A stretch of DNA of 64,000 bases from a virus (IMGVR_UViG_3300032138_000002:1-64000); one strand, 5' to 3'. Counted from the stretch's first letter, positions 324 to 62,232 are shown. Numbers and translations: made by a program. Notes: generated from the letters alone by a model not told the origin.

Positions 324-1577
324 TTACTCGGACGTTTGTGTCAGGGGTTCCGGGCCATATATAACCAAAGGGGGCGTTTGTTTGGTTACACAATCCCCAC
401 TGACCACTACTTCGCTCGCGCTCTCTGAGGACGGAATCTCGTACATGGTTTGCAGCATGATCTTTTCGATGATAGAACGTAATCCGCGTGCTCCAGTTTT
501 CCGAGCTATAGCTAGGCCAGCGATGGCTTCTAGCGCGTCTTTCGTGAATTTTAGTTCTACCCCTTCGTAGTCAAACAAGTGCTCATACTGTCGGATGATA
601 GCGTCCTTGGGCTCTGTAAGAATACTTAGGAGAGCTTCGGTGGAAAGGTTGTCCAAAGCTGCGATCACCGGAACACGACCAATAAACTCTGGGATTAACC
701 CGTAGGATACTAAATCGTTAGGTTCCGTCTCAGACAGGATGGTATCACTGTCAAACGTTTGTTTATCATCCTCTGAGCGGAAGCCCATAGGGCGCGTAGT
801 CATGCGCTTTTCGATGATTCGCTCTATTCCAGAAAACGCACCTCCACAAATAAACAAAATGTTGCTGGTGTCAATTTTAATACCTTCTTGGCTCGGATGT
901 TTGCGGCCGCCTTTAGGAGGGACGTTGGAAACGGTGCCTTCGATGAGCTTCAAGAGCGCCTGTTGGACGCCTTCGCCCGATACATCGCGAGTGGTAGAAA
1001 CGTTCTCAGACTTCTTGGCGATTTTATCTATCTCATCAATATATATAATCCCTCTTTCGGCGATATCGACGTCATCATCGGCGGCCTGAATCAGGGAGAG
1101 TAAAATGTTTTCTACATCCTCGCCCACATAGCCGGCTTCAGTCAAGCTCGTGGCATCGGCAATTGCAAAGGGGACTTGCAAGATCTTGGCGAGGGTGCGA
1201 GCCAGCAGCGTCTTTCCTGTGCCGGTCGGCCCTAACAACAGAATATTAGACTTCGTAAGTTCGGGGTCTTCTGAGTTTCTTTTTCGGGTTGCTGAAAGTT
1301 CCAGTCGTTTGTAATGATTATAAACGGCTACCGCTAAGACCTTCTTGGCTTCTTCTTGTCCTATAACATACTCGTCCAGCTTTTCTTTAATTTCTTTGGG
1401 TTTGGGGAGTGCCCCTAAGTCGCCAAAAGCATCCGGGGCTTCTTCCTCAATAATATCATAACATAGGAGGATGCATTCATCGCAAATATAAATGCCGTTG
1501 CCTGCAATTAACTTTCTTACTTCATTTTGTGCTTTTTCACAGAAAGAGCAAGTTAATAGCTTTCGTGTTTCTGTCAT
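324..1577 (-). CDS. clpX: ATP-dependent Clp protease ATPase subunit ClpX
   Basis: N-terminal C4 zinc domain (CSFC..ICDEC), Walker A GPTGTGKT, Walker [17 protein letters not shown] pore loop, RKH loop, MGF variant of IGF loop, GARGLR sensor. Confidence 0.97.
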
Positions 1578-7866: not shown

Positions 7867-8493
7867 CTAAATATCCTCTTCGTCCAATAAAGTATATGTA
7901 AAAGAGTTTCCAAAGATGTCGGCAGCCTTATTGCACGTTACCATAAACTTGGAAAACGCAATCGTGCTCCTGAATACTTGACAGCCGGCCGAAGATCCAT
8001 TAACATATTCTTTTTCGCCTGCTCGGGAGTGCCGATGAATATTAATGCCAAACATTCCTTGTTGGATACTCTCATCTTCCATTTCCAATCGTCGATCCTT
8101 GTCGTCGTCGCGATAAACTTTAACGGGGCCACCGCGTTGAACAAGGGCGACATGTCGAAAGGATCCGCCGTGTGTACCAATACGATAGGTGCTACGATAC
8201 TGTCCCGGAACCAAAATGGCTGTGCCGTCTGGATTAATCGGCTTCCGCAAAATCGATGGTCCCGGGTCTGTGGTGATCTGGTAACTCTCTACAACCCACT
8301 CCTTATCTTCGTCCCGATAGATGACGAGCAGCGCATCGTCGAATTTAGTTGAATCGTGAGAGGACTTACGGATGCCCACCAAATTTAAATTGTATGATTT
8401 GTTCCCGTCAAAGAAAGCATATCCTTTCTTAGCCAAGACCTCTTTAATAACTTCCGCCGTCACGCGTGCGTAGAGTCCTTTTATAATAGCCAT
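7867..8493 (-). CDS. L,D-transpeptidase (YkuD)-like peptidoglycan enzyme, possible lysin
   Basis: PGQY, GINIH and SAGCQV (His..S-x-G-C catalytic motif of the YkuD fold); late motif upstream. Confidence 0.65.
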   Translation of the reverse strand: MAIIKGLYARVTAEVIKEVLAKKGYAFFDGNKSYNLNLVGIRKSSHDSTKFDDALLVIYRDEDKEWVVESYQITTDPGPSILRKPINPDGTAILVPGQYRSTYRIGTHGGSFRHVALVQRGGPVKVYRDDDKDRRLEMEDESIQQGMFGINIHRHSRAGEKEYVNGSSAGCQVFRSTIAFSKFMVTCNKAADIFGNSFTYTLLDEEDI

Positions 8494-8514: not shown

Positions 8515-8522
8515 TAAATAGT
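8515..8522 (-). promoter_or_regulatory. Putative late promoter motif ACTATTTA
   Basis: Intergenic, about 22 nt upstream of ATG 8493; same motif precedes structural genes. Confidence 0.65.
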
Positions 8523-8532
8523 TATTATGACT

Positions 8533-8718
8533 TCATTTTTCCGTTTCCGGAGGGAGATAAAACTTTTCTAATTTTCCAAATTTATTATATAAAATAAGTT
8601 CCCCTGAAGATAGCTCATGTTTCTTTTCCGGAACTTTCTTCTCCGGGGGTGCAACGCCACACCATCTCAAGTGATGAGGGGGGATGGGAACCACGGGGCT
8701 TACTCTTGTTATTTTCAT
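8533..8718 (-). CDS. Hypothetical protein (61 aa)
   Basis: ORF track; ATGA overlap with upstream stop. Confidence 0.55.
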   Translation of the reverse strand: MKITRVSPVVPIPPHHLRWCGVAPPEKKVPEKKHELSSGELILYNKFGKLEKFYLPPETEK

Positions 8719-9083
8719 CCTTCGTCTCTCTTGGCCGGTACTTTTAAAAGACCGATTCTTCTGGCTGCTTCTACTCGATGATGACCATCCAATATATAAT
8801 AAAAAGGCTCATCGTCAGGATTTTTAGGAGGCATCGTGTATTCCTCTTTGTCTTTTAGACGCGCAACATTAAGTGGTTTTTGATGACACACGGTAATTGG
8901 TTCGAAGTTTCCACCCATTATCTTGGAGATTTTATCATCCACCATCTCTTCACACTCCGGACTAGGGCAATCATAATCTTTTCCATGACCCAGTTCTTCG
9001 GTGGGAATAAGTTTCTCAATGTCGACATAAAATACGGAAGGGCCTTCTTTATACTCTCGCCAATTTTCAAGTAGTTGTTTCAC
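8715..9083 (-). CDS. ParB/Srx-like N-terminal domain protein
   Basis: FEPITV..YILDGHHRVEAARRIGLLKVPA is the ParB/sulfiredoxin GxxR motif; leader MKQLLENWREY. Confidence 0.75.
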   Translation of the reverse strand: MKQLLENWREYKEGPSVFYVDIEKLIPTEELGHGKDYDCPSPECEEMVDDKISKIMGGNFEPITVCHQKPLNVARLKDKEEYTMPPKNPDDEPFYYILDGHHRVEAARRIGLLKVPAKRDEG

Positions 9084-9465
9084 TTTGGTGTTTCTCCTTG
9101 ATATAATTAGCTATTGGAACAGCTTCTCCATCACCATCAATGCGAACAAACTTCATTTTTGTTCGACAAACGACCTTCTCCGAGTTGTTATATGTACTAT
9201 GGCGCCGTGCTTCGATGTTTAGAAGACACGATGTTCTCCCAAAATTTTCTAATTTTCCGTAAACCTTTATGATCTGACCAGGGCGTACCGGCTTAAGAAA
9301 CTGAACCTTATCCATAGAGACAGTAACCATTCTTGGTGTCTCACAAAGTTGACAAGCATATGCGACTGCGGCTTCATCGAGCCACGCGAGCATCAGACCT
9401 CCAAAGAGGTTACCATGATACCCACAATCATTTTCTTTACACATATGTGTAGATATAAGTTCCAT
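9067..9465 (-). CDS. Acyl-CoA thioesterase (hotdog fold, YciA-like)
   Basis: HGNLFGGLMLAWLDEAA, VTVSMDKVQFLKPVRPG, GRTS, FVRID motifs. Confidence 0.9.
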   Translation of the reverse strand: MELISTHMCKENDCGYHGNLFGGLMLAWLDEAAVAYACQLCETPRMVTVSMDKVQFLKPVRPGQIIKVYGKLENFGRTSCLLNIEARRHSTYNNSEKVVCRTKMKFVRIDGDGEAVPIANYIKEKHQSETTT

Positions 9466-10103
9466 TACTGTATCTGATTAGCTAATTCTTTTGCGCGTTC
9501 AATGGTGGCTGGGATATCTTCTTCCATTATAATATAATCAGCCAAAGATTTAATTTTAGTTTCCTTTTCGATTTCATTACGAAGCTCGGCCATTCTCTTT
9601 TTGAGTTGTTCTCTATCTTCGTACTCGCCTGTTTCCAACCTGCGAGCTTGGCGATGCAGTAATTCCTCCGGAGGGGCAGTTACATAAACAGCTACCATTT
9701 TCTTGCCTAGCCTTCCTATCTCTCTATGGAGTTGGGGGATAGCCGTGTAATCAGTAATCATAATAGCGCGTGGAGAATCCTTTATCTTTTCTTTGTCTGT
9801 ACCGTAAGCGTTGCCAGCGTAGGAAGCGTTAACATTCAAAAGGCGATCTTGGCCCTGTAGACTATTGAATTCATCCTGGGAGATAAACTCATACTCCCCA
9901 TCTTGTTCCTCCGTTGAGCCCGGGCGCGGCGGTCTTGTAGTATAAGAAACAATCTTGTCCCACTGTTCGTCCACAAACACATCCCGCGCTACCGATTTCC
10001 CTGAAGCTGTTGGACCAAAGATAGCCACAACCGTGCCGCTCGTTTTAGATTCATTACGCCAAGCTAACCACCCGTTGTAATGGTTGTTATCCCACTCGCC
10101 CAT
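9465..10103 (-). CDS. gmk: Guanylate kinase-like protein
   Basis: GPTASGKS P-loop, SYTTRPPRPG, DGEYEFIS, YGT motifs. Confidence 0.85.
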   Translation of the reverse strand: MGEWDNNHYNGWLAWRNESKTSGTVVAIFGPTASGKSVARDVFVDEQWDKIVSYTTRPPRPGSTEEQDGEYEFISQDEFNSLQGQDRLLNVNASYAGNAYGTDKEKIKDSPRAIMITDYTAIPQLHREIGRLGKKMVAVYVTAPPEELLHRQARRLETGEYEDREQLKKRMAELRNEIEKETKIKSLADYIIMEEDIPATIERAKELANQIQ

Positions 10104-10531
10104 TAGCGCTCCACTTGGTTAACCGCTTTAACTTTAATATTACTTACTTCAGGTAGCCGAGAAAGCTGCTCGATCAAGATTTCAATAAGTCTTTGTATGC
10201 TTTGCCCAGGAACACGCACCAGCTTAATGTTTACGAGATGCAGTAGTGCCCCTGGTCCCGCCGGTGTCGCCCGTCCCTGAGGGCTGCAGCGCGTTACGCC
10301 AGGGATTGCTCGGATTTTATTAAGCACGTTGTCGGTACCGGCTTCTTTTTGGTATACGACACTGGTTACTACAACAAACATGTCTAAATCTTTAGAAGCT
10401 TCGTCGAGTTGTCGCGCTATCTCTTCCATGATGAAGGCACTAGCATTAGCTTCGAGTACCCCCTCTTCATCGAGGGCACCACACTCTTCTACAATAAGCT
10501 CACGCAATCTTTTTTTAGTGATTTTCATCAT
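10103..10531 (-). CDS. Hypothetical protein with MKITKKRLRELIVEE leader and ferredoxin/ACT-like C-terminal part
   Basis: ORF track; variant late motif ACTAGTTA at 10552-10559; TAATG coupling to gmk. Confidence 0.7.
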   Translation of the reverse strand: MMKITKKRLRELIVEECGALDEEGVLEANASAFIMEEIARQLDEASKDLDMFVVVTSVVYQKEAGTDNVLNKIRAIPGVTRCSPQGRATPAGPGALLHLVNIKLVRVPGQSIQRLIEILIEQLSRLPEVSNIKVKAVNQVER

Positions 10532-10565
10532 ATCTCTCTCATCGTGTATATTAACTAGTTCTCTT

Positions 10566-10952
10566 TCAATGGATAGTTAAATTAATTCCCCAGTTTCGTA
10601 AGAGTTCCCAGTCGTTAGCTACGAGGTGCCGGGCCGTTGAGCGAATTGTCTTAGTCTGTTCGTTGCTGAGGAGGTGTTGTTCTTCCCCCGTTTCTTCGTT
10701 GACGTGGGTCCCTTCTGTGTTTAACTCCTTCATAATTTTAAGAAATCTATTGGCGTTAGAAATATATTCATATAAGAGTTCTCGGAGATCTCGTTCTGAG
10801 TTGCCGCTTTTAATATCTTCTTCCACCAAGTGTTCCAATAACACCAAAGCTCTTTTTACTTCGGCAGACTGACGCACTCTCGCCTTCGGGTCAAACCAAT
10901 ATTTTTTGTTAGAGTTAAAACTATTGATGCTCATTTTAAATATCGTATCCAA
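10566..10952 (-). CDS. Hypothetical protein
   Basis: ORF track; fits the minus-strand gene tiling. Confidence 0.65.
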   Translation of the reverse strand: MDTIFKMSINSFNSNKKYWFDPKARVRQSAEVKRALVLLEHLVEEDIKSGNSERDLRELLYEYISNANRFLKIMKELNTEGTHVNEETGEEQHLLSNEQTKTIRSTARHLVANDWELLRNWGINLTIH

Positions 10953-11296
10953 TTAAACCATGGACGTTCTTCTATATAATTCATGTCGCGCTGGTTTGTA
11001 TAAGCCTCTTTTTCGAATGGATTGGAATAGTATGCCGTCTGCCTATCTCGGTAACGAATAAGACCTGCGACATAAAACACTGCGTATAAAAGCCACTGGA
11101 AGACAAAAAGCAACTCAAGCTGTTGGAAAAAGTGGATTGTTTCGTGATTCTCCAGGACCGGGTTTCGTTTGTGTTTTAAAAAGATAAAAGGTCCGAAACT
11201 AAGCGCTGTAATACCCGCGGCGAGAATATTCAATTTGGCCACTAGTCTAACGATTAAACTGTTTTGAAAAACAAAAGGGCGTAACTTTCTTATCAT
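10931..11296 (-). CDS. Membrane-associated HExxH zincin-like protein
   Basis: NHETIHFFQQ and NPFEKEAY (third ligand E) with hydrophobic segments. Confidence 0.7.
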   Translation of the reverse strand: MIRKLRPFVFQNSLIVRLVAKLNILAAGITALSFGPFIFLKHKRNPVLENHETIHFFQQLELLFVFQWLLYAVFYVAGLIRYRDRQTAYYSNPFEKEAYTNQRDMNYIEERPWFNWIRYLK

Positions 11297-11309
11297 TTTA
11301 TCTCCCCCT

Positions 11310-11612
11310 TTAATCGAGGATCAGACCGGGTGGGGCTTGATATATTTTTTTCTGAACTTGCTCGGGGGACCCTACTACCACCATATCGATTCCGGTTTGG
11401 CCGCGGTTTAGATATATCCGCGTAAAAGTCTGCCCCTTGCTTAATTTGGTGGGCAGTTTATCTTCAAGCAGCAAGCCCTTATAGTCCCGGTCTTCCCGCA
11501 AGCAAACTACTTGTTCGGGGTTAATGAAAACTTCTCTCAATCCGAAGCTTCGGGTTTTCTGGTTGGAATGAAATTTGGTGTCCTCAAACACTTCTACTAA
11601 TGGTATAATCAT
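11310..11612 (-). CDS. Hypothetical protein (weak FlbD-like pattern)
   Basis: VFINPEQVVCL..TRIYL..VVVGSPEQVQKKI; family call uncertain. Confidence 0.6.
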   Translation of the reverse strand: MIIPLVEVFEDTKFHSNQKTRSFGLREVFINPEQVVCLREDRDYKGLLLEDKLPTKLSKGQTFTRIYLNRGQTGIDMVVVGSPEQVQKKIYQAPPGLILD

Positions 11613-11892
11613 CTTTCCTCCTTAATGGAAACACTAGGTGTTTGGGAATGCTCCAACATTCCCCTTCGCAAAATACCTTGTGATAAACACCGGTAATGTC
11701 CTTCTCTACTAATATACCCAGGCTAGTTGTTATGGTGGTGCGAAAACGCACTGGTACTTCCTGCTCAAAGTCAAACTGCAGCAGAGTGAGGTTGCTGGGG
11801 ATAAACAACAAATCTCCGTCTCGGATGTTCTCCTTACACCTCATCGGTGGTGGTACCTTCTTCCGCAACTTCTTCAGTTGTACCCTCATCAT
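11584..11892 (-). CDS. Hypothetical SH3-like protein (start uncertain)
   Basis: IRDGDLLFI..LGILVE..HKVF..WSIP pattern. Confidence 0.55.
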   Translation of the reverse strand: MMRVQLKKLRKKVPPPMRCKENIRDGDLLFIPSNLTLLQFDFEQEVPVRFRTTITTSLGILVEKDITGVYHKVFCEGECWSIPKHLVFPLRRKDDYTISRSV

Positions 11893-12235
11893 GCTGCTTT
11901 GCCTTCGATGCAGCTTCTTCGACTTCGGCCAGTTTGGTGCGTAATTCTTCCGCCGCCACCTGTTCCATGTGGTCTAGCACACGGTGGTATCCCCGTAAGA
12001 CGTGGCTCACCTCCTCATACGCACGCACCACCTTTTGAATCGTTTCAGGTACTTCCAACAAATCATCAAGAGCAAACTGTGTTTTTTCTTTGTCCCCTGT
12101 TTTAGCAAGGCGTACCGCGTAAGTGAACCGGCTCACAAGTTCCTCATGAATGACGTCGTTTAAATCATTGACTAAACTTTCTAGCCGGGCCGGGATGTCG
12201 CTGGTGTCTATGGTTTGCTGAATTGTGACTTTCAT
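11834..12235 (-). CDS. Hypothetical helical protein
   Basis: ORF track; SD AAGGA upstream. Confidence 0.7.
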   Translation of the reverse strand: MKVTIQQTIDTSDIPARLESLVNDLNDVIHEELVSRFTYAVRLAKTGDKEKTQFALDDLLEVPETIQKVVRAYEEVSHVLRGYHRVLDHMEQVAAEELRTKLAEVEEAASKAKQHDEGTTEEVAEEGTTTDEV

Positions 12236-12255
12236 TTTTATATTTTCCTTTTATT

Positions 12256-12522
12256 TTAATTCAAGTACTGGATCCACATGGCAGCGCCCACCGAAACGAG
12301 GCCCCCCATGATCATCCATAAAAGTTTAGAGGAGCTATTTTTCCAACTCTCTAGTTCTCGCAAGCGCACATACAACCCTTCGTCAGGTTCGTATACTGCA
12401 TCGCGGATTTGCTCTAGGTGTTGAGCCATATCATCGTGTTTTTCTCTAATGGTGTGCACGGCATCGAGAACTCGTTCTAATTTTCCGTTTAATTCAATAA
12501 GCGCTTCTTGTGGGGTTAACAT
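12256..12522 (-). CDS. Coiled-coil protein with C-terminal transmembrane helix (holin/XhlA-like architecture)
   Basis: Heptad region, then RLRELE and hydrophobic LLWMIMGGLVSVGAAMWI. Confidence 0.6.
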   Translation of the reverse strand: MLTPQEALIELNGKLERVLDAVHTIREKHDDMAQHLEQIRDAVYEPDEGLYVRLRELESWKNSSSKLLWMIMGGLVSVGAAMWIQYLN

Positions 12523-12543
12523 GGTATTATTGTCCTATAGTAT

Positions 12544-12572
12544 ACTATATCATGTATTATATAATTAGTCAA
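12544..12572 (-). promoter_or_regulatory. Sigma70-type promoter
   Basis: TTGACT (12572-12567), 17 bp spacer, TGn-TATAGT (12549-12544). Confidence 0.75.
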
Positions 12573-12621
12573 GAAAAAAATGTTTGTTATTAACACCAGC
12601 AACCGTAAAACAAACCTACAT

Positions 12622-14190
12622 TTATGTCTCAATAATGGCAAAGTTGGTGGTGATAAGCGTTGATGCTACAGACACCGCGTTCTGAAGAGCGCAGCGCGTT
12701 ACTTTTGCGGGGTCGATTATTCCGGCCGTGACCAGATCTGTCGTTTCTCCCGTATAAAAGTCAATGCCGATCGAGCCCGCCGTATTGAGAACTTTGTCGA
12801 CCACTACATCTGGAGACAACCCCGCATTAGCGGCCATTTGTTTAATGGGTTCTTTTACAGCCTCAGTAATAATCTTCACCCCGAGGCCCTGGTCCTCGTT
12901 GTCAACACGGACATCCAAGTTTGTGGCAGCCCGAAGCAGCGTGACCCCACCGCCGGCCACAACACCTTCAAGTTGAGCAGATCGGACGGCTTCTAAGGCA
13001 TCTTCGATGCGATGTTTTTTTTCAATCATTTCCACTTCCGACAGACCGCCGGCTCGAATAATCGCAACCCCGCTAGCAAGGCAAGTGACTCTTTCCTGAA
13101 GTCGCTCAGCCTCGTGGAGATTATCTGTTTGGGAGATCTCCGCCTTAAGTTTTTCAATGCGCTTTTCGACCTCATCAAAGTCGCCGCGGCCCCCAACAAA
13201 AGTTGTGTCGCCCTTGGTTATTTCGACAGTCTTTATAATGCCGAGGTCCGCCAATTTAACATTGTTTAAAGTGGTGTCCGACGTGCGGGTAACAAAAGAT
13301 GCCCCAATCGAAATAGCCAAATCCTCCATAATATTGCGGCGTTCTTCACCATAGCGAGGGGCTTTGATGGCCGCCACTCTCATCGTTCCGCGGATGGCGT
13401 TCATGATTAAAGCAGCCAATGCTTGCCCTTCAACGTTTTCGGCGACGATTAGAAGAGGGCGTTTTTCTCGGGAGACAAGCTCTAGGGTTGGTAAGATTTG
13501 TTCAACTGTTTCGATAGCTTCATCGGTAACTAGCACATAACAATCCTCATGTCGGATGGTGCCGCGGCGCTGATCATTAATAAACTGGGGAGATATATAC
13601 CCCGAATCAACTCGAAAGCCCTCGACAAAATCTAAACTGGTCTCTACGGAACGAGCTTCCTCTACGGTGATCGATCCGTCTTTACCCACTCGGTCGACGG
13701 CTAGTGCCACTAACTTTCCGATAGTATGATCGTTATTGGCAGATATGGATGCCACATGTGCAATGTCTTCTTCGCTCGAAATAGGTTGTGAAAGCTCCTC
13801 AATGTTCGCCACGATCTCGGCGGTAGCTTTGTCCATACCGCGCTTGAGTTCAACTGGTGAAACGCCGGCTTTCAAATACTTTTGAGATTGCACCAACACC
13901 GCTCGGGCAAGTACAGTTGCTGTAGTGGTCCCATCGCCCGCATCGGTGTTGGTTTCTTCTGAGGCTTGCTTAATAACTTGGGCTCCGACGTTCTCAAATT
14001 CGTCTTCCAAATCTACAAAACGAGCAATCGTTACGCCATCTTTGGTAATGATGGGGCGTTTACCCTTTTGTTGAAGTACCACGTTCCGCCCCTTTGGGCC
14101 CAATGTCGACGCCACATTATCAGCTAACTTGTTTACACCAGATAAAATCTTATCATGTAGACTAGTGTTGTCACAATATTTCTTTGTCAT
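12622..14190 (-). CDS. groEL: Chaperonin GroEL (Cpn60)
   Basis: [45 protein letters not shown]; lacks the C-terminal GGM tail. Confidence 0.96.
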
Positions 14191-14212
14191 TTAAACCTCG
14201 CAGTGAGTATAC

Positions 14213-14240
14213 ATTATAACATTTTAATCAAAAAAGTAAA
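14213..14240 (-). promoter_or_regulatory. Extended -10 sigma70-type promoter for groEL
   Basis: TGn-TATAAT (14218-14213) with weak -35 TTTACT at 16 bp spacing. Confidence 0.6.
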
Positions 14241-14243
14241 GAC

Positions 14244-15719
14244 TTATTTTTTTTCTTCGATCGCCTTAACAGCGCTGTCCGTTGCGTCGCGCAGGTTTTG
14301 GGCATCACTAATAGCTTGGAGGGCATGCTCTTGCCGCGTCTCCCCCTTACCCGCGCTCCCCAAGAAATAAGAGTTTACATTGTTTGTATAAGAATTTAAA
14401 AATCCATACACAGGTTTAATAGTGGCATTGAGGAGTTCGGCGTAATTGAGCCACGCTTTTTTAAGAGCTTCCGGGCCCAAAGGTAAGAAGCCAATAGGTT
14501 TAAAATTTTCTATAGCTTCTGCCTGATTACGAGTGAAAATAAACTGCTGTTGCTTTTCACCTTCGATAGCACCGTAAGCCGGTGTTTTCATTAGAGACGC
14601 GATTATCGCGTCTTTGTCTCCCGAATCAATAGCAGTCTGCAACTGTTGAACGACCGCGAACGAACCGAACAGTTTTTCAGCCTTGGTGCCTTCAAATTTC
14701 GTTTCTGAATATACGAAAGTGAAGGGAGCATACTCCTGTAATTCCTCGGGATCGCTCTCCACAATACGTCGACTTAGCTGGTTTAACATCTCACCACTGG
14801 CTCTGACCTCGTTCACTGCCGATGGCGAGTAGTGCCAGGAGGTGGCAGTAGATCCGGGTACAAAACCCTTCTTCCCCACAGTCAACTTTTTAAGAGGTGT
14901 CCCTCCATCCCATAACCGCTTCACAATCTTTTGAGCTTCTTCGGCCGAATCTGTTTTAACCGGCTCCTTGATATTAACCTCTTTTAAAAATGGATCAACA
15001 AAAACTTTAACGAAGTCTTGAAGGGTGATAGTAAATTCACCAAACTCTAGGCCGTCTGAGCCCTTAGCACTCAGGCGCCGTGCATCCAAATATATAACAT
15101 GGTCATGACTTTTAAAGTGCTCTACCATATTAAAGAAAGAGCCCTTTACGTCGGTAGATGGCCCGAGCAGCTTAAGAGAATATTCTTTGTCGCCTAGGCG
15201 GACGTCCGTAATCGGCTTCCCAACGGCGCCCCCGCTAGCATCGTCGCTCTTGTCAACATCCACAATCTGAACTGACTTATCACCAAACAGACCGGCCAAG
15301 AATGCTTCAAAAATAAAACCTCCGGCAGACTCAGTAAACTCCGCAAGGAGAGCGCTTAAAATTTCAATGACCACCAACGTAGCCAGAATTTCACTAATGC
15401 CGGCTTCTTCATTAGCGCCTTCGATAATGCGATTTAGGCTAGCCAGTTTCTCTTCCAATGTGCCTCCCTCAATATTAGAGGTGAAGGCTTCAATGATTTG
15501 GCGGTCTTTGGATTCGGGCTTTCCCCAATCTTCGGTAATTTTAATGGTCGGAAGGAACTCTGTAAGATCCACCTCCTTCTCTTTTTTCGCTTCGCGGAGC
15601 GCTTGAGGGGGCCCTATTTTGATACTCTCTTCGGTGATGATTTTTAATATATCGTCAAGGCCAAAAGCGCTTGCCGGCTTTGGTGCAAAAAATTGTTCTA
15701 TAAGTTTGTCTAGGCTCAT
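14244..15719 (-). CDS. Putative PD-(D/E)xK nuclease-fold protein, late-expressed
   Basis: GFIFEAFLAGLF..ITDVRL..EYSLKLL resembles the restriction-endonuclease core (E..D..SxK); late motif 4 nt before ATG. Confidence 0.55.
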   Translation of the reverse strand: MSLDKLIEQFFAPKPASAFGLDDILKIITEESIKIGPPQALREAKKEKEVDLTEFLPTIKITEDWGKPESKDRQIIEAFTSNIEGGTLEEKLASLNRIIEGANEEAGISEILATLVVIEILSALLAEFTESAGGFIFEAFLAGLFGDKSVQIVDVDKSDDASGGAVGKPITDVRLGDKEYSLKLLGPSTDVKGSFFNMVEHFKSHDHVIYLDARRLSAKGSDGLEFGEFTITLQDFVKVFVDPFLKEVNIKEPVKTDSAEEAQKIVKRLWDGGTPLKKLTVGKKGFVPGSTATSWHYSPSAVNEVRASGEMLNQLSRRIVESDPEELQEYAPFTFVYSETKFEGTKAEKLFGSFAVVQQLQTAIDSGDKDAIIASLMKTPAYGAIEGEKQQQFIFTRNQAEAIENFKPIGFLPLGPEALKKAWLNYAELLNATIKPVYGFLNSYTNNVNSYFLGSAGKGETRQEHALQAISDAQNLRDATDSAVKAIEEKK

Positions 15720-15723
15720 GCTT

Positions 15724-15731
15724 TAAATAGT
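15724..15731 (-). promoter_or_regulatory. Putative late promoter motif ACTATTTA
   Basis: Intergenic, immediately upstream of ATG 15719. Confidence 0.6.
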
Positions 15732-15749
15732 TAATATTACAAGTAAACT

Positions 15750-16541
15750 CTAAATAATTTCATCAGCAATGCCAAGCTCTATTGCTTCTTCCGCCGTGAG
15801 ATATACATTCACTTTTCGGTCCATCAATTTTTTAAGATATCGCCGAGTCATATCTGTTTCTTCTACCAAGCAAGTAATGTGTTGGTCTTGGAGATATCGG
15901 ATCTCATCCATTTCATTTTCCAAACTATGAAGTGATCCATGGCTAGCGCCGATGACACTGTGTATCATAATACGGCAGTTCTTCATTACCTTACGTTTTC
16001 CCTTCGTTCCGGAGGCCAGCAGCAGCACTCCGGCTGACATCACTTTACCGATGCCGATGGTGCTGATTTCACAATCCTTCCGCACCATTCGTACAGTGTC
16101 ATAGATAGCAAACATCTCCGGTGCGGAGCCTCCGTAAGTTGATATCATTAATTCCAAAGGATCAAACTTGGTTAGGATTTCTGATTCAGGATCTTCCGGG
16201 TCAACGTACTCTTTATACTCCCCTAGTTTGTGCAGCATCACTAAAGAATATACAAGCTCCGCCGTGTTGTCTTCATTTACTTCGCCATGCAGAGATAGAA
16301 GACGGATTTTCGGTTTTTCCGCTTCCGCGGCCATATTCTCCAACAACAACAGTTGACTGAGATCAACATGGTCCAGTGCCTCTTTGGGTTCAGAGGCGCA
16401 GGGCGTGTCTGGTTGTTCCTCTTGTGGTTCCTCTTCTTCCATCTTACTGGAAGCGCGGCGCTTTTGTGGAGCCCCCCGGACGCTCTTCTTTCGCGACTTG
16501 GATTTGGGTTTGGGGGGGCTGGAAGTTTTATCTTTCGGCAT
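15750..16541 (-). CDS. clpP: ClpP-family protease with disordered N-terminal extension
   Basis: LHGEVN, ISTYGGS, AIYD, GKVMSAG (catalytic Ser), MIHS (His), YLTAEEAIELGIADEII; the triad Asp position appears to be Asn. Confidence 0.88.
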   Translation of the reverse strand: MPKDKTSSPPKPKSKSRKKSVRGAPQKRRASSKMEEEEPQEEQPDTPCASEPKEALDHVDLSQLLLLENMAAEAEKPKIRLLSLHGEVNEDNTAELVYSLVMLHKLGEYKEYVDPEDPESEILTKFDPLELMISTYGGSAPEMFAIYDTVRMVRKDCEISTIGIGKVMSAGVLLLASGTKGKRKVMKNCRIMIHSVIGASHGSLHSLENEMDEIRYLQDQHITCLVEETDMTRRYLKKLMDRKVNVYLTAEEAIELGIADEII

Positions 16542-16940
16542 CTATCTTCTCGCAGGTTTAATATCTTTCTTATAAATACGATCTAATTCCGCCATCGCCC
16601 CATTCCAATCTTCATATTTTAATAAAAATCTATAATGACGAGGAAAATTGGCTAGCAAGTGAGCGATTGAAGCGTTCTTCCATTTGTGGAAGGTACGTTC
16701 ATCTACTTCTCGCACCACGTTGAGTTCTTCTTCAGGCAGTCCTGCTTTGTGTAGTTGTTTATATTTTAATTCTCGACCAAAACTTAGGTCGGCTGAGACT
16801 ATGGACAAAGCCAAGAGTGCCTGTTGGTTTATCTTGGTGACAAAATTGGTCATATGTCCATAGGTTAGGATGGCGCTTAAGAATCGATAAGTAAATACTC
16901 CGATCAAAAACCACGCCATCTCAGTATACTGTCCAAACAT
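16542..16940 (-). CDS. Hypothetical membrane-anchored protein
   Basis: N-terminal hydrophobic segment; directly abuts clpP. Confidence 0.7.
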   Translation of the reverse strand: MFGQYTEMAWFLIGVFTYRFLSAILTYGHMTNFVTKINQQALLALSIVSADLSFGRELKYKQLHKAGLPEEELNVVREVDERTFHKWKNASIAHLLANFPRHYRFLLKYEDWNGAMAELDRIYKKDIKPARR

Positions 16941-16968
16941 AGAAGCTCCGCTTTAAGTTATACAGCCC

Positions 16969-16997
16969 AGTATAACACACCCTTAATTAAATGTCAA
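16969..16997 (-). promoter_or_regulatory. Sigma70-type promoter (clpP operon)
   Basis: TTGACA (16997-16992), 17 bp spacer, TGn-TATACT (16974-16969). Confidence 0.85.
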
Positions 16998-17003
16998 GGG
17001 AAA

Positions 17004-17720
17004 TTAGGAATCTTTCTTCTGTGTGAGCCGTTTAAAGATGCGCTCGGTAAGCTCGTCTGCCAATTGCTCTTGCTTCTCTTCGGCGAGGCGGGCCTCCACC
17101 TTTTCCATTACTGAAGCAAAGAAAGCTGCTTGAGCATCGTCTTCCTCTAGAGAAATACCGCGGTCTTCTTTGTCCCGGTCGTCCCACTTGCCGTAGGAGT
17201 CATCTCTGCGTCCTTTCTTGGACACGCCGCGCGGCTTCTTGCCGAGGCGTGCTCCAAGGGACTCGTCTTCTTCATCATCGTATCCCTGCTTTTTTTCCTC
17301 GGGCAGTGCAAACTCATCGCCTTCTACTTCTTCATCACCAGCAAGCTCGACGGCCTCAAGGCCCTCTTCATCATCACCCATGTCCATGTCAAGATCAAGA
17401 TCGTCCTCGACATCCAATTCTTCACCGGCATCACCGGCATCAATATTAAGCTCAAGCTCAGGGATGGCTTCTTCGAGTTCTGCTGCCATGGCACCAAGGC
17501 CGGCTGCTAGAGCATCTTCCACGTCGCCCACACTCAGTCCAGTTTCTTCGACTTCTACGTCTACTTCAACTTCCTCAGCGGGGGGCTCTTCGATTACCTC
17601 TTCGGCATCTACTTCAATCTCTTCCTCTTCAGGAAGGAAGGTCTCTGTAAGTGGGCCTAAAGACGCCAATTTCATGAATCGTCTAATGGTTGCTTCGTTA
17701 AGTAAGTTTTTCTTGCTCAT
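17004..17720 (-). CDS. Very acidic protein, probable internal head/core protein
   Basis: Glu/Asp-rich, many L/I-x-E sites, N-terminal LLNEATIRRFMKLASL, late motif upstream. Confidence 0.6.
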   Translation of the reverse strand: MSKKNLLNEATIRRFMKLASLGPLTETFLPEEEEIEVDAEEVIEEPPAEEVEVDVEVEETGLSVGDVEDALAAGLGAMAAELEEAIPELELNIDAGDAGEELDVEDDLDLDMDMGDDEEGLEAVELAGDEEVEGDEFALPEEKKQGYDDEEDESLGARLGKKPRGVSKKGRRDDSYGKWDDRDKEDRGISLEEDDAQAAFFASVMEKVEARLAEEKQEQLADELTERIFKRLTQKKDS

Positions 17721-17755
17721 CGTTGTGCTCCTTGTGGGTGAAAAATACTCAAAAT

Positions 17756-17763
17756 TAAATAGT
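17756..17763 (-). promoter_or_regulatory. Putative late promoter motif ACTATTTA
   Basis: Intergenic, about 36 nt upstream of ATG 17720. Confidence 0.65.
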
Positions 17764-31519: not shown

Positions 31520-31535
31520 AATCTTCCTCTTAAAG

Positions 31536-31608
31536 TATGCTCTCTGGGAGTTGAACCCAGGACTACTCGCTTATAAGACGAGCGCTCTAACCACTGAGCT
31601 AAGAGCAT
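31536..31608 (-). tRNA. tRNA-Ile (anticodon UAU), CCA not encoded
   Basis: Cloverleaf: acceptor ATGCTCT/AGAGCAT, D arm GCTC/GAGC, anticodon stem CTCGT/GCGAG with loop CT-TAT-AA, T arm CTGGG-TTCAACT-CCCAG, discriminator A. Confidence 0.93.
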
Positions 31609-57547: not shown

Positions 57548-59362
57548 TTAGACAAGATCTTGAATAACAACAAGGCCGTACATATCAGGACGTACCATCT
57601 TCTTCGCGTAACGGGTCATTACACCCTTACGAGGAACAAAGTCCTCGACACCGAAGATAGTTGGGGTCACCTGAAGTGGTACATATGGAGCATAAACATA
57701 ACCGCTCTCAAGGAACGAGTTACCCTTACGTCCAACAAGGACCACATTACGGGGGAAGTACGGATCTACATGTACATCCCACTTCTTGCTAAGAGAACCA
57801 ACTCTTACAGCACCAACGGAACCGCGGTCGCCGTCACCAGTGACGTCGGCACGGAAGCCCGAAGTGAACTCAAGAATGCTAGCAACCTCTGGGGAGCAAA
57901 CAATGAAGTTTGCACCACCACGAAGTGTCTTGCGGTGGATACGTGCGGAGACGTCATTAACTGTCTCACACAGCGTTTCATACCATTCAGACACTGTACC
58001 GGTGAAGTCAGGAGCGACAGTGGTTGCTCCAATTTCTGCACCAGTCTCGCGGTTAACGAACTTGCCAGCAGCACGGGACCAGTAGAGAGTTCCACCAGTT
58101 GCGCCCTTAATGAGGTCCTCAAGGATCTCACGGTCGATCTCCAAAGCGATCTGCTCTGAGAGAATACCAGTAAGTTCAACCTCTGCGTCGAGGTTGTGAT
58201 AAGCGTTGAGGTCCTGGCCAAGCTCGGGGGTCCACTTTGCCTTCAGCTTCTTGGTCATCGCAGTAACGGATACCGAATCAACTTTAATGTCGATCTCTGG
58301 AATTTGAGCGCTATTCTCCAATCCCCAAGTATTAGTACCAACTACAGCACCAATCGCCTCGGCAGAGCCAGCAGCAGGTGTGCCAGCAAAGTTGTCGTCA
58401 ATTGGGAAACCAAGGACGAAATTGAGGCCACTAGCTGAAAGACACGACAGGAGGTTTGTGGTCGCCGCCGCGCCGTTGGACAGGACCTGAGAACCAGTAG
58501 CTTCCCAAACCATCTTAATCTTGAAGACCGCATTTCCGGCGTTAGCACCGGTCGAGCCGGTAGAAACCGTTGTCAGGCGTCGTACGAGACGCCCTGGTCC
58601 AGTACCTGCCTGACTCAGTGAGGAATTTTGGTCCACGTTGATTGCAACCATATCGCGGATATTCAACTGGGCGAGCCCAGCAGCACCGGTCAACTCAGTA
58701 ATAGCAACTTGAGAGCCAGAAAGATCTGGATCAAACTGACACAACCTGTCCAAGATATCTTGATTAGCTTGAGAGAGTGGGTAGTCTCCACCACCGCCGC
58801 CCACACCAACGGTACCGGAAGCGATGTGTCCCATTCCGCCGGCCCCGCGAGTGTCGCCCTGGAGGACGAAGGATGCGGTTGGGGATGCATAACCTTGATT
58901 AAGGTTATAGAAACTGTCACTAGCCGTATCGCCGGTGAGTGTTACACCACCAGTGATTTCCTGACCAACAACTCCACCACCATAAAGTGATTCATCGACA
59001 GACGCCCACAAACGTGGGGTAGCGCTATCGATTGTGAAATCGAGGAAGAATACGAGACCAGATGGAAGGCTCATTGGTTGAACACTAACAAGGTCATTCG
59101 CGATGAGGCTACCGAAAACACGGCGGACGAGAGGGAATGCTACTGCAGCAAATCCTTCTACATCACCCTGTGCCATGGTAGACGCTTCGCGGAGAAGCTC
59201 TTTAGCTTGGTTCTCAAGCAAGCGAGCCATACAGTTTTTGTGACTATCGTTACCGACACCTTCAAGAAGACCGGTCTTTTCCCATTTTGAAATGAGAGCA
59301 GCACCTTCCTTTTGTAAGTCGCGGTTAACGATGCCTTCAGTAAGTTTTTCTAAAACAGACAT
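57548..59362 (-). CDS. Major capsid protein (T4 gp23 family) with large insertion domain
   Basis: KW..LLEG, LLENQ, PLVRRVF, VQPMSLPSGL.F, KLKAKWT.E..QDL.AYH.LDAE.EL, YAPYVPL, G.MTRY. Confidence 0.95.
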   Translation of the reverse strand: MSVLEKLTEGIVNRDLQKEGAALISKWEKTGLLEGVGNDSHKNCMARLLENQAKELLREASTMAQGDVEGFAAVAFPLVRRVFGSLIANDLVSVQPMSLPSGLVFFLDFTIDSATPRLWASVDESLYGGGVVGQEITGGVTLTGDTASDSFYNLNQGYASPTASFVLQGDTRGAGGMGHIASGTVGVGGGGGDYPLSQANQDILDRLCQFDPDLSGSQVAITELTGAAGLAQLNIRDMVAINVDQNSSLSQAGTGPGRLVRRLTTVSTGSTGANAGNAVFKIKMVWEATGSQVLSNGAAATTNLLSCLSASGLNFVLGFPIDDNFAGTPAAGSAEAIGAVVGTNTWGLENSAQIPEIDIKVDSVSVTAMTKKLKAKWTPELGQDLNAYHNLDAEVELTGILSEQIALEIDREILEDLIKGATGGTLYWSRAAGKFVNRETGAEIGATTVAPDFTGTVSEWYETLCETVNDVSARIHRKTLRGGANFIVCSPEVASILEFTSGFRADVTGDGDRGSVGAVRVGSLSKKWDVHVDPYFPRNVVLVGRKGNSFLESGYVYAPYVPLQVTPTIFGVEDFVPRKGVMTRYAKKMVRPDMYGLVVIQDLV

Positions 59363-59386: not shown

Positions 59387-60466
59387 TTAAGATTTGTTAA
59401 TCCCGGCTAAAGTTTTCCAGCGATTAGACACTGTATCTTTAACGGGTTTTTCCTCGCGACGAGGAATTGTTGTTGAAGGGCGGCTGACAGCCTCGCTCAG
59501 TGATTGTGGCTTCGATTTTGTTTCTTGGCCCACGGCGCTTTGAAGTGTGTCATAAATAACCTTTGTTTCTTCAACGGACGAAGTGCTGGATAAGGACTCG
59601 ACAATTTTTGATTTTTGTCGCTCATTCAAGGAGGTGCTACCCAAAACTTTGTTTGTGTAATAAAGCTGAGCGTTGGTTAAATTAACCTCTTCTAGCTTTA
59701 CTTTAATTTTTGATAACAAAGAGGTGAGATTATTATTGTTCTCAATAATTTCATCTTTCTTTGCTGTCAAAGTTTTAATTTGCTCTTCTAACTCAAGCTT
59801 CTCTGTGGAAGCGAGTTGAACAGCGTGTCTCAATTCTTCTGCATCATATGGATTGGTTTCGACTGCATCAGATCCGTCTTCCCACTCTGTAGCATCTACA
59901 GCAAGACGAGCTTTGAGCGCATCCTCTAAATATCTCTCGCGTGTTGTATTGGTGCCACCACCAGGGGTGCCACTCGGTACAGGATTTAGATTTAAAGTTA
60001 CCTTTTCCATAATTTGCGCAATCAGTTCTTCGGGAATATCCAAGTCAACGTCTTCTTGGAGAGAGAGGTTAAGATCTATCTCTTCCTCATCTTCTTCTTC
60101 GTCTTCGTCTTCGAGGCCGGCCTCAATTTCACCAGCTAAAGCCTCAGGGTCTTGCATTTGGTTATCCAGATCGGCTGCGATAGCGTCAAGGTCAATCGTA
60201 ACCTTACCACCTTCTTCAGGGCACGCACACAGATTTTCACCATCCGTATCTGCGCGGGGTACGTCAGCAAAGTCTGCTGCGACATCAACTTCAGCGTCGC
60301 CAATATCTGTCATGCCAGCTTCGTCTTCGGGTTGTTCAAGCAGGCTTTGTACGGCCGTTTTCACTTCCTCAGAATATTTTTCAATTATATTCTGTTCTGC
60401 ATTTTTAAGTGCAGCTTCGCGTAGAGCCTCTGCGTCGACGATGGCTTGTTCTAGCATTTTTGACAT
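59387..60466 (-). CDS. Prohead core scaffold protein
   Basis: Acidic coiled coil directly upstream of MCP, many L-x-E sites, C-terminal RWKTLAGI; start MSKMLEQ at 60466. Confidence 0.75.
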   Translation of the reverse strand: MSKMLEQAIVDAEALREAALKNAEQNIIEKYSEEVKTAVQSLLEQPEDEAGMTDIGDAEVDVAADFADVPRADTDGENLCACPEEGGKVTIDLDAIAADLDNQMQDPEALAGEIEAGLEDEDEEEDEEEIDLNLSLQEDVDLDIPEELIAQIMEKVTLNLNPVPSGTPGGGTNTTRERYLEDALKARLAVDATEWEDGSDAVETNPYDAEELRHAVQLASTEKLELEEQIKTLTAKKDEIIENNNNLTSLLSKIKVKLEEVNLTNAQLYYTNKVLGSTSLNERQKSKIVESLSSTSSVEETKVIYDTLQSAVGQETKSKPQSLSEAVSRPSTTIPRREEKPVKDTVSNRWKTLAGINKS

Positions 60467-60980: not shown

Positions 60981-61199
60981 TTAAATAGTATCTCTTTCTC
61001 GTTTTAGCTTATCTAAAACTTTTTTTCGTTGCTTCTGCGCTCTTTTCTTTTTTACTGAAGGTTTCTCGTAGCGCATTCGGTCTCGGACATGCTGCAATAT
61101 GCCCTCTTTTTTGACCTTGCGCGAAAACCTTTTCAGTGTTCTTTCAATAGCTTCGTTGTGTCGTGGTCGAATTTCAACATTAACCGGGCGGTTGCTCAT
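60981..61199 (-). CDS. rpsU: 30S ribosomal protein bS21 (phage-encoded)
   Basis: E.IE..LKRF.RKVKKEGIL..VR.R..YEKPSVKKKR signature. Confidence 0.9.
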   Translation of the reverse strand: MSNRPVNVEIRPRHNEAIERTLKRFSRKVKKEGILQHVRDRMRYEKPSVKKKRAQKQRKKVLDKLKRERDTI

Positions 61200-61624
61200 T
61201 TTTTACCTTCTAGCAAAGCGTTCCACACTCTTTTGTTGTCACCCATCAAGCTTGAGATGTCGACGCCGGCGTCGCTGGGGTCTGTTCCTGTCATGGACCC
61301 GTGCTGAGCGCCCGTATCTCCCCTCATCGGAGTGGTTCCTTCAAAGAGGTCGACGCCGTTATAAGCGGAATTTCCGATAGCATCCAACATTTGTTTGCGT
61401 GTTTCTTCAATTTTGGTTCGCCGGCGAGTTTGTTCCTCGGATATAAGTGTTTCGTCCACCGGGGCGGCTTTGGGTTTTTGAGGAGCCTCAACTATAGGCT
61501 GTGTGCCTAGACCTTTTACCACTTCCGAGACGACGGTGGATAAAAACCCCTCTTCGATGAGGGCTTCTTGAATACATTCTTTAACGAGGGGCTTAAGAAT
61601 ATTTTTTAATTCTGATTTTTTCAT
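61196..61624 (-). CDS. Hypothetical head-module protein
   Basis: MKKSELKNILKPLVKECIQE leader; coupled between protease and bS21. Confidence 0.75.
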   Translation of the reverse strand: MKKSELKNILKPLVKECIQEALIEEGFLSTVVSEVVKGLGTQPIVEAPQKPKAAPVDETLISEEQTRRRTKIEETRKQMLDAIGNSAYNGVDLFEGTTPMRGDTGAQHGSMTGTDPSDAGVDISSLMGDNKRVWNALLEGKK

Positions 61625-62232
61625 GTGCTTCGTAATATATCGTTTAAGGCGCGGTTAATTCGGTCTGCTTTTGTAAACACTTTATCTAAATTTAGATCCT
61701 TCCCCTCGGTCATCATAAATGCCCCGGGGGTCGATGGCTCAGAAACAAAATCAAAACATATTAATTGGAAGTCATCTTCCACGATTGTTTGCCCTTGCGA
61801 TTCAGACACCGATCCTAATCCACGGGAAGAAATACCAAGTTTCACCCCTGACTGGACTAGTGAACTGAGAATTTGGCCCGATGGGGTGTCAAGCACTTGT
61901 ACTTTTCCCATGAGCGCATTTTCCTGCCACCAAACTTCTGTAATAAGGTGGGACGCGTTCGCTAGGTTAATAATTTCATTGTCCGGATGGTCTAGTTCGC
62001 CTAGGGCGCGTCGTTCATCTACGAGTTTGGAATAAAGATCTGCTTCTCGGCGAAGCACGCCCTCAGGGTATACGCGGCGGTTGCCGTTTTCAACTCCGTA
62101 ACGTTGCATTACGCCTGTTAAAAAGGTAGCCTTTCCTTCTTTGACGAGCTTTTTCTCAGCTTCGGTAAGAAAGTCTTGACAGACGCCTCCATCGCAAAGC
62201 TCATAAAATTCTCTTAATAAATATTTACTCAT
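61621..62232 (-). CDS. Prohead core protease (T4 gp21 family)
   Basis: NGNRRVYP, ALGELDHP, ASH, TPSG, GISSRGLGS, DFVSEPSTPGA; start MSKYLL at 62232. Confidence 0.93.
   Translation of the reverse strand: MSKYLLREFYELCDGGVCQDFLTEAEKKLVKEGKATFLTGVMQRYGVENGNRRVYPEGVLRREADLYSKLVDERRALGELDHPDNEIINLANASHLITEVWWQENALMGKVQVLDTPSGQILSSLVQSGVKLGISSRGLGSVSESQGQTIVEDDFQLICFDFVSEPSTPGAFMMTEGKDLNLDKVFTKADRINRALNDILRST

Follow-up and report, generated by a model that had tools for sequence, protein, structure and literature searches.

Portable 14-residue N-terminal leaders in an uncultured marine far-T4-like phage and their possible role in loading the prohead

The stretch IMGVR_UViG_3300032138_000002:1-64000 (hereafter the window, 64,000 nucleotides) is the first 64 kb of a single viral contig of 159,483 bp, which comes from an uncultured marine far-T4-like phage and carries nearly all of its genes on the minus strand. 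For the interval 8715-17763 of the window, an earlier note had proposed that genes far from the structural module begin with short amphipathic leaders ending in L/I-x-E, which would load enzymes into the head in the manner of the capsid targeting sequence (CTS) of phage T4. The question raised by this locus is therefore whether such leaders exist as portable elements and, if so, where they would send the proteins that bear them. All five N-termini and the scaffold C-terminus quoted in that note are present at the genes it named, but its general criterion does not separate leaders from other sequence: of 165 proteins, 35 (21.2%) have L/I-x-E among their first 20 residues, and internal windows of 20 residues contain it at nearly the same rate (20.6%, p = 0.46). 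We found instead two unrelated leaders, here called class 1 and class 2, whose best examples fall outside the interval, at genome 68.8-69.5 kb and 155.9-159.2 kb. From sequence evidence, we consider it probable, though only modestly so, that these leaders form a T4-CTS-like system for loading proteins into the prohead and clipping them there.

Two leader classes on unrelated proteins

A rough gene call over the whole genome contained a recurring start, MK[IL]TK[SKE][QR]L[KRT][EQ]II[KR]EE. The class-1 leader is written MK[IL]TKSQLKQIIKEE, also given as MKITKSQLKQIIKEE, or in the form of our proposal MK[IL]TKSQLKQIIKE, with 14 residues and [LI]-x-E at positions 12-14. When a position matrix was scanned over all six frames, ten copies scored far above the background of this genome, all of them in open reading frames (ORFs) of the coding strand. 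Six high-scoring copies are at ATG starts (genome 159175, 158801, 156118, 69452 and 69081, and window 10528), and four are internal, three in a 576-residue protein and one in the 318-residue protein at genome 156118-157074; a seventh start, at genome 157074, is a weak variant. I-x-E occupies positions 12-14 in nine of the ten. The bodies behind these leaders are mutually unrelated by BLASTP, and searches of Pfam and PHROGs gave no match for them.

The same peptide is widespread in databases. A class-1 profile compared with 5.8 billion proteins gave 771 hits among 8000 candidates scored, and the motif is at the start of nearly all of 120 listed proteins, which range in length from 85 to 653 residues; two or three copies per protein are common, and Pfam domains are almost absent. 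Back-translation of the exact peptide matched at least 120 IMG/VR stretches, while the class-1 pattern had zero matches in 596 Gb of bacterial and archaeal genomes, so the element as observed is restricted to viruses. Among the IMG/VR matches listed, from which the ORF counts of both classes in this section are drawn, 107 complete class-1 ORFs formed 75 cargo clusters, and 95 of 109 copies lie no more than 30 codons after an upstream stop and are hence N-terminal. Three near-complete relatives (G001, G002 and G004) have 5-10 copies each, every one at a start codon. The huge phage LR756508 gave 12 profile hits, and Flavobacterium phage immuto has a shorter variant (MKKSQLRQIIKE...), with leaders of the MKKSQ... 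type; its genes immuto35A_175, _176, _190 and _198 all begin MKKS[EQ]L.... The profile found none in phage RM378, cyanophage Syn19 or T4, and a tblastn search of cultured phages with a leader query of 25 residues found nothing, the query being probably too short.

The class-2 leader, MKLL[LF]ENWRK[YF][LI]xE, also has 14 residues and [LI]-x-E at positions 12-14. Its search pattern, MK-L-x-L-E-N-W-R, left positions 10-14 free and matched at least 120 IMG/VR stretches, from which 101 class-2 ORFs formed 54 cargo clusters. Positions 10-14 nevertheless read [KEQ]-[YF]-[LIV]-x-E. Of 112 ORFs, 89 have E14 and 80 have [LI]xE at 12-14, and beyond residue 14 the sequences are no longer conserved. Because [LI]-x-E was recovered from positions that the search had left free, both classes can be described as leaders of 14 residues with the cut motif at the same place. 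The proteins behind class-2 leaders cover at least ten Pfam families, including HAD_SAK_1, NUDIX, Zeta_toxin/AAA_33 kinase, RNase_T, NT5C, Pkinase, RNase_H_2 and PGDYG. Class 1 and class 2 thus bear out the claim of the earlier note that leaders are portable across unrelated cargo, a claim that did not hold for two of its own examples, the N-termini of the genes at 17004 and 14244.

In the present genome, besides a degenerate example in the interval 8715-17763, class-2-type starts occur on three further genes: one at genome 74103, whose leader has a four-residue insertion, one for an 885-residue protein at genome 144347, and one for a deoxynucleotidase-like protein at 155125-155904. Five genes of G002 have a class-2 start, and variable islands hold class-1 and class-2 leader genes mixed. 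No match to the class-2 profile was obtained in immuto, Microcystis phage Mel-JY01, LR756508, Syn19 or T4, in a search run without a positive control. The 885-residue protein (genome 144347-147004, plus strand) adjoins a leader-gene island, begins with the class-2-like MKDFHKSWKNFINE and has no Pfam domain; orthologues are present in G001 and G002, the latter starting MHNFHNSWRQFLAE. It may be a large Alt-like cargo.

The internal class-1 copies are best seen in the 576-residue protein (genome 157071-158801, minus strand; L002:17071-18801), which consists of four leader-plus-body units in tandem. In a relative that is 98% identical (P0006), units 3 and 4 are a gene by themselves, headed by a Met-leader, and units 1 and 4 are found behind leaders in other architectures. 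Genes thus fuse and split at the leader boundary. The 576-residue protein looks like either a recent gene fusion at leader joints or a protein meant for cutting apart; should the protease reading be correct, the cuts would fall at the internal leaders.

Shared gene starts of this kind could also have arisen without any role in protein targeting, as the ends of cassettes that help translation to begin (through an A-rich MK... start) or promote homologous recombination, and thereby shuffle small accessory genes between phages. The exact coincidence of the P0006 break with a leader would suit such cassettes, as would the mixing of both classes in variable islands and the three class-1 copies of the 155.9-159.2 kb cluster, which are identical in DNA over 12 codons. 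Dispersed class-1 copies, by contrast, have many synonymous differences with the peptide unchanged, and homologues of the 10103 protein with 40% overall identity retain 14 of 15 leader residues; together these point to selection at the protein level. The leader is better conserved than the rest of the protein, and it is conserved at internal sites where no initiation takes place. Nor would cassette ends explain a fixed [LI]xE at positions 12-14 of two unrelated leaders, or the depletion of this motif in the cargo described below. We therefore regard an origin as cassette ends alone as very unlikely.

Links to late expression, the prohead protease and cargo composition

The late motif invoked by the earlier note proved to be real. 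The sequence ACTATTTA (core CTATTTA) occurs 12 times on the coding strand and twice on the opposite strand, and 10 of the 12 coding-strand copies are within 50 nt of a start codon. On the minus strand of the window, copies start at 8522, 15731, 17763, 49382, 54106, 56848, 60508 and 60989. The genes that follow them include the scaffold, the neck, a 1015-residue gene of the structural module and two genes of the interval under study, 15719 (motif at 15724-15731, minus strand, 12 nt upstream) and 17720 (motif at 17756-17763, minus strand, 43 nt upstream); a near-consensus copy, ACTAGTTA, is located at 10552-10559 on the same strand, 28 nt upstream of the ORF start at 10531. CTATTTA is distributed 40:7, 47:7 and 24:4 between the strands of the three relatives, so that four genomes in all are strongly biased.

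The association of leader genes with this motif, also part of the earlier proposal, was confirmed. CTATTTA was present within 500 nt upstream of 9 of the 14 leader-gene clusters of G000, G001, G002 and G004, compared with 18.4% of all genes (p = 2e-4), and none of 5000 random-position trials attained nine clusters. To judge by this linkage to a late-type motif, leader genes may be expressed late, at the same time as the head genes. The T4 late promoter TATAAATA was ruled out as the late signal, with 6 and 7 matches on the two strands and few of them near starts. Early promoters resemble TTGAC-N17-TATAAT (for example before 7013, 14190, 16940, 23134, 33255 and 37845), and those of the GroEL and ClpP operons are sigma-70-like. 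An exact late motif also lies 29 nt upstream of a 208-residue gene at window 7867-8493 (minus strand) that has no Pfam match; its position and timing would suit a candidate lysis or virion-associated enzyme.

A protease of the expected kind is encoded, as the earlier note had supposed. The gp21-type prohead core serine protease (Peptidase_S77, Pfam PF03420, 4.6e-27; 61621-62232, minus strand) is 31% identical to T4 gp21 and retains the His and Ser motifs GELxHP and SSRGLGS. It belongs to a head module with a gp22-like acidic scaffold (59387-60466, minus strand) and the gp23 major capsid protein (57548-59362, minus strand; Pfam Gp23 PF07068, 1.4e-71), for which the closest cultured relatives, immuto, Mel-JY01 and Rhodothermus phage RM378, show 43-51% identity. 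The propeptide of T4 gp23 has 65 residues (PMC9026906); that of the present gp23 is predicted to comprise residues 1-59 (nt 59186-59362), with the cut at LLRE|AS. The T4 gp23 site FLTE|AE aligns to this position, to LLKE|AS or LLRE|AS in the three relatives and to IVSE|AN in immuto, giving [LIV]-x-E|A at the capsid maturation site in all five phages aligned (this phage, the three relatives and immuto).

Leader genes and the S77 gene also occur together. Of 31 class-1 contigs, 22 have S77, as do 11 of the 12 of at least 98 kb. All of these contigs are fragments of genomes of about 170-190 kb, the shorter ones being 17-28% fragments according to CheckV, and no small-genome phage was included among them. 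In G002 and G004, leader genes abut the S77 gene, and S77, portal and terminase genes are their neighbors. In the present genome, two leader genes are situated between the terminase gene and a 778-residue gene (69951-72287), downstream of a late motif at 69947.

Proteins held beside an active protease in the prohead would be expected to experience selection against exposed cut motifs. The observed/expected ratio of [LI]xE was 1.26 (1.23-1.30) in 1156 neighboring ORFs, 1.13 (1.00-1.27) in class-1 cargo and 0.88 (0.76-1.01) in class-2 cargo, where the intervals are 95% bootstrap intervals and each set contains related sequences, which are not wholly independent of one another. The motifs [LI]xD, [LI]xQ, [LI]xK and [AG]xE were no lower in cargo than in neighboring ORFs. 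The depletion of the cut motif is clear in class-2 cargo.

Several observations weigh against a prohead destination. In class-1 cargo the depletion is marginal, and the co-occurrence with S77 is confounded by lineage, ClpP being equally present in five of five near-complete leader-bearing genomes. Cargo is mostly acidic, with a median isoelectric point of 5.1 for class 1 and 4.8 for class 2, and is basic in only 16 of 107 and 16 of 101 proteins, respectively, among the IMG/VR matches listed. Class-2 cargo includes many enzymes of nucleotide metabolism, and these could work just as well in the cytoplasm. The four internal class-1 copies are not what a strictly N-terminal signal predicts, the canonical [LI]xE at positions 12-14 is absent from the leaders of the ParB-like gene and of the gene at genome 74103, and the upstream promoter of the 155.9-159.2 kb leader cluster falls beyond the contig end. 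Finally, the leaders bear no likeness to the T4 CTS, and neither class profile has a match in the T4 genome at E <= 1, from which it follows that the system would be analogous to that of T4 and not its relative in sequence.

Some of these points would suit leaders that dock onto a hub other than the prohead, either as a tag for the phage's own ClpX/ClpP (timed degradation or unfolding) or as a handle for a cytoplasmic enzyme complex. The phage encodes ClpX (zinc finger plus AAA+; window 324-1577, minus strand) and two ClpP homologues (window 15750-16541 and genome 140385-141083, both minus strand), nucleotide and RNA enzymes are abundant in class-2 cargo, and T4 internal proteins do not share the acidity of the cargo. 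The co-occurrence of ClpP was tried as a discriminator between ClpXP and S77 and failed, both being present in all near-complete genomes. What speaks against such a hub is that leader clusters follow the late structural-gene motif and adjoin S77, portal and terminase genes, whereas the promoter of the ClpP operon is of an early type. The prohead-protease motif forms the exact end of both leader classes, and a ClpX tag does not predict a specific loss of that motif from the cargo; internal copies in fused proteins would in addition be useless as terminal degrons. On this evidence a non-prohead hub seems unlikely to us.

Genes of the interval 8715-17763

In the direction of transcription, the interval contains genes for an acidic 238-residue protein (17004-17720), a 132-residue protein (16542-16940), ClpP, a 491-residue protein (14244-15719) and GroEL (12622-14190, minus strand), followed by seven small ORFs, a 141-residue gene (10103-10528), Gmk, a 4HBT thioesterase and the ParB-like gene. 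The order from the acidic protein through 16542, ClpP and the 491-residue protein to GroEL is kept in G002 and G004; G001 has the same order, but no homologue of 16542 was detected there.

The 141-residue gene (10103-10528, minus strand) carries the class-1 leader MKITKKRLRELIVEE at nt 10484-10528, as located by a position-specific scoring matrix scan; the ORF starts at 10531, and the leader Met lies one codon downstream, at 10528. Its AlphaFold2 (AF2) model (predicted local distance difference test score, pLDDT, 81.5) has a helix at residues 5-44 and an alpha/beta domain at 50-139. The body is a generic ferredoxin/ACT-like fold, for which Foldseek returned only EF-1beta, NikR-C and ACT-like folds, and no function is implied. 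By its leader, this gene fits the loading model. The ParB-like gene (8715-9083, minus strand; 122 residues, GTG start) is the last of the operon 10528 - Gmk - 4HBT - ParB and matches the model less certainly. Motif scans and alignment assign it a degenerate class-2 leader, MKQLLENWREYKE, which starts MKQLLENWREY and has Y-K-E at positions 11-13 in place of [LI]xE at 12-14. The protein matches PHROG 1033 over residues 45-121 (E = 2.2e-5) and no Pfam family at its cut-off.

The list of cargo in the earlier note was otherwise largely wrong. No leader was found on Gmk or on the 4HBT thioesterase, and Gmk, 4HBT and GroEL are not cargo. The protein of the 14244 gene (14244-15719, minus strand), which had been called nuclease-like and leader-bearing, belongs to a large phage family with 505 representative homologues whose N-termini show loose [DN]KL[VI]E and L.E[ML][IV]E motifs and a family-specific [LIV]xE. 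Neither leader class was found on full-length members, and one short representative (P0334) matched the class-2 pattern. E138, D172, S181 and K183 are invariant in 68 sequences, with S-x-K instead of D/E-x-K. In the AF2 model (pLDDT 88), the N-terminal residues, about 45 in number, are flexible helices. Foldseek gave no hit at E <= 1e-3 (weak rows: Hjc, SwaI, DpnI and Cas4-like), VIA-align wide matched only a C-terminal helical hairpin, and a PDB sequence profile search returned nothing. The assignment as a PD-(D/E)xK nuclease-like protein is thus tentative, and most probably the 491-residue protein is not cargo.

The acidic 238-residue protein (17004-17720, minus strand; 33% Asp+Glu) starts with MSKKNLLNEATIRRFMKLA..PLTE (nt 17631-17720), which had been interpreted as a modular tag. 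A database search with its first 40 residues gave 65 hits, all of them orthologues that share the start MSKKNLLNEATIRRFMKLA..PLT, and they have the same body, with a hypervariable middle of 25-40% Asp+Glu and a conserved basic C-terminal helix. The sequence looks scaffold-like. The likeness of its RFMKLASL to RWKTLAGI in the scaffold C-terminus (...NRWKTLAGINKS; RWKTLAGI at nt 59399-59422), also pointed out in the earlier note, stands in part. In the six-frame translation, the pattern R[FWYM]xxLA[GS][ILV] matches nowhere but at these two places; the scaffold form R[WFM]xxLAG[IL] is conserved in five of five genomes, and two non-scaffold proteins of immuto have an N-terminus ...F[KR]RMQxLAGIITE. 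Profile-profile comparison of the two families, on the other hand, gave a non-significant N-terminus-to-N-terminus alignment (hhalign, E = 0.11). The 17004 protein probably enters the prohead through this N-terminal copy of the scaffold's C-terminal docking peptide. In immuto, the acidic protein immuto35A_203 (L123:7725-8966), annotated as "DNA polymerase phi-like protein", is encoded between the prohead protease and the major capsid protein and ends ...SRWQKLAGIIK. This protein is the gp22-like scaffold of immuto, and the existing annotation is probably wrong.

The remaining example is a conserved 142-residue protein encoded directly downstream of the prohead protease (61196-61624, minus strand), which begins with the class-1-like variant MKKSELKNILKPLVKE. 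Its orthologues in G001, G002 and G004 are located 0.1-1.7 kb downstream of S77 and start MK[KR]x[ED]LKK[IL][IL][KR]P; no similarity to T4 gp68 was found. In our reading this protein is a conserved part of the core, and the class-1 leader resembles its start.

The five N-termini that gave rise to the idea were therefore not one system as presented, since they fall into four different and unrelated motif families. They might even be a chance collection of amphipathic starts with L/I-x-E, as the unremarkable frequency of that motif near N-termini and the non-significant profile comparison for the R[FW]xxLA[GS][IL] likeness would allow. Two of the five, however, belong to database-wide portable leader families (10103 to class 1, and the ParB-like gene, in degenerate form, to class 2), a third (61196), the conserved neighbor of the protease, starts in a like manner, and the scaffold-tail motif recurs at the N-termini of the two immuto proteins. 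We consider mere chance improbable. Elsewhere in the window, a tRNA-Ile gene with anticodon TAT is present at 31535-31608 (minus strand).

A model of prohead loading and its comparison with known systems

Considering these results, we have proposed a model in which the leaders are short N-terminal address peptides that would function like the T4 CTS. A protein made late would bear a 14-residue amphipathic leader of class 1 or class 2, and this leader would dock onto the assembling scaffold core, which then becomes enclosed by the capsid shell. The S77 protease would cut after Glu14 of [LI]-x-E and release the cargo inside the head, from where it could exit together with the DNA. Docking, cleavage, packaging and ejection are steps that we infer from motifs and gene neighborhoods.

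A bolder version, which we offer tentatively and think rather doubtful as a whole, is a cargo system with several addresses. The interchangeable 14-mers and the scaffold-tail copy would each imitate the end of an essential core protein, class 1 the start of the protease-neighbor protein and the 17004 N-terminus the C-terminus of the scaffold, so that any late protein could be loaded, clipped by S77 and delivered. Multi-module fusions would be cut apart at their internal leaders, the cargo set would be large, fast-evolving and variable, and the specific loss of [LI]-x-E would be the mark that evolution next to the protease has left on the cargo.

If prohead loading is correct, abundant ocean phages would deliver a payload larger and more varied than the three internal proteins and Alt of T4, which would comprise exonucleases, kinases, HAD and NUDIX hydrolases and numerous orphan proteins. 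Phage genes now labelled "hypothetical" would, in their hundreds to thousands, be candidates for first-minute effectors that counter host defences, and a simple sequence rule would predict virion cargo from metagenomes. The 14-residue leader could also be used as it stands to package foreign proteins in non-model phages, and the choice of contents by T4-type heads could be tested in the cultured Flavobacterium phage immuto. A full-text literature search for the leader peptide strings found no relevant paper.

The closest known counterpart is the CTS of T4. In that phage, internal proteins are directed to the core by propeptides of 10-19 residues, which gp21 removes (PMC9026906 section 2.6; PMC3012670). 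The first 10 residues of IPIII suffice, with separate positions governing targeting and processing, and the internal proteins co-purify with gp22 (PMC9026906; PMC3012670). Like the propeptides of IPI, IPII, IPIII and Alt, the leaders described here are short N-terminal sequences common to unrelated, poorly conserved proteins and end in hydrophobic-x-Glu, in a phage that encodes a gp21/S77 protease, a gp22-like scaffold and gp23. Their genes also lie in variable islands and beside head genes, and may be expressed late, to judge by the late-type motif. The differences are nonetheless considerable: the leader has 14 residues here and 10 in T4, at least two interchangeable classes exist, and 5-15 genes per genome are tagged instead of the 3-4 of T4. 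The cargo is acidic and, in class 2, often enzymatic, whereas IPI-III of T4 are small, basic and DNA-associated, and the leader here is also found inside fused multi-module proteins, where their units join.

The C-terminal coat-binding peptides of scaffolding proteins, such as P22 gp8, and the cargo-loading peptides of encapsulins dock proteins on the inner face of an HK97-fold shell. The N-terminal peptide of the 17004 protein is comparable through its resemblance to the scaffold C-terminus R[WFM]xxLAG[IL], but the likeness covers 5-6 positions in 8 and is non-significant by hhalign, binding to gp23 is putative, and the scaffold-tail peptide heads one conserved family, not varied cargo.

In the giant phages phiKZ and SPN3US, a gp21-related protease trims many head-internal proteins after Glu (PMC5694885, PMC7411985, PMC10052503). 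Their ejection and inner-body proteins resemble the proposed system in forming a large cargo set that includes enzymes and multi-fragment proteins. They have no defined short portable leader and use another cut motif, whereas the lineage described here has a discrete, swappable 14-mer.

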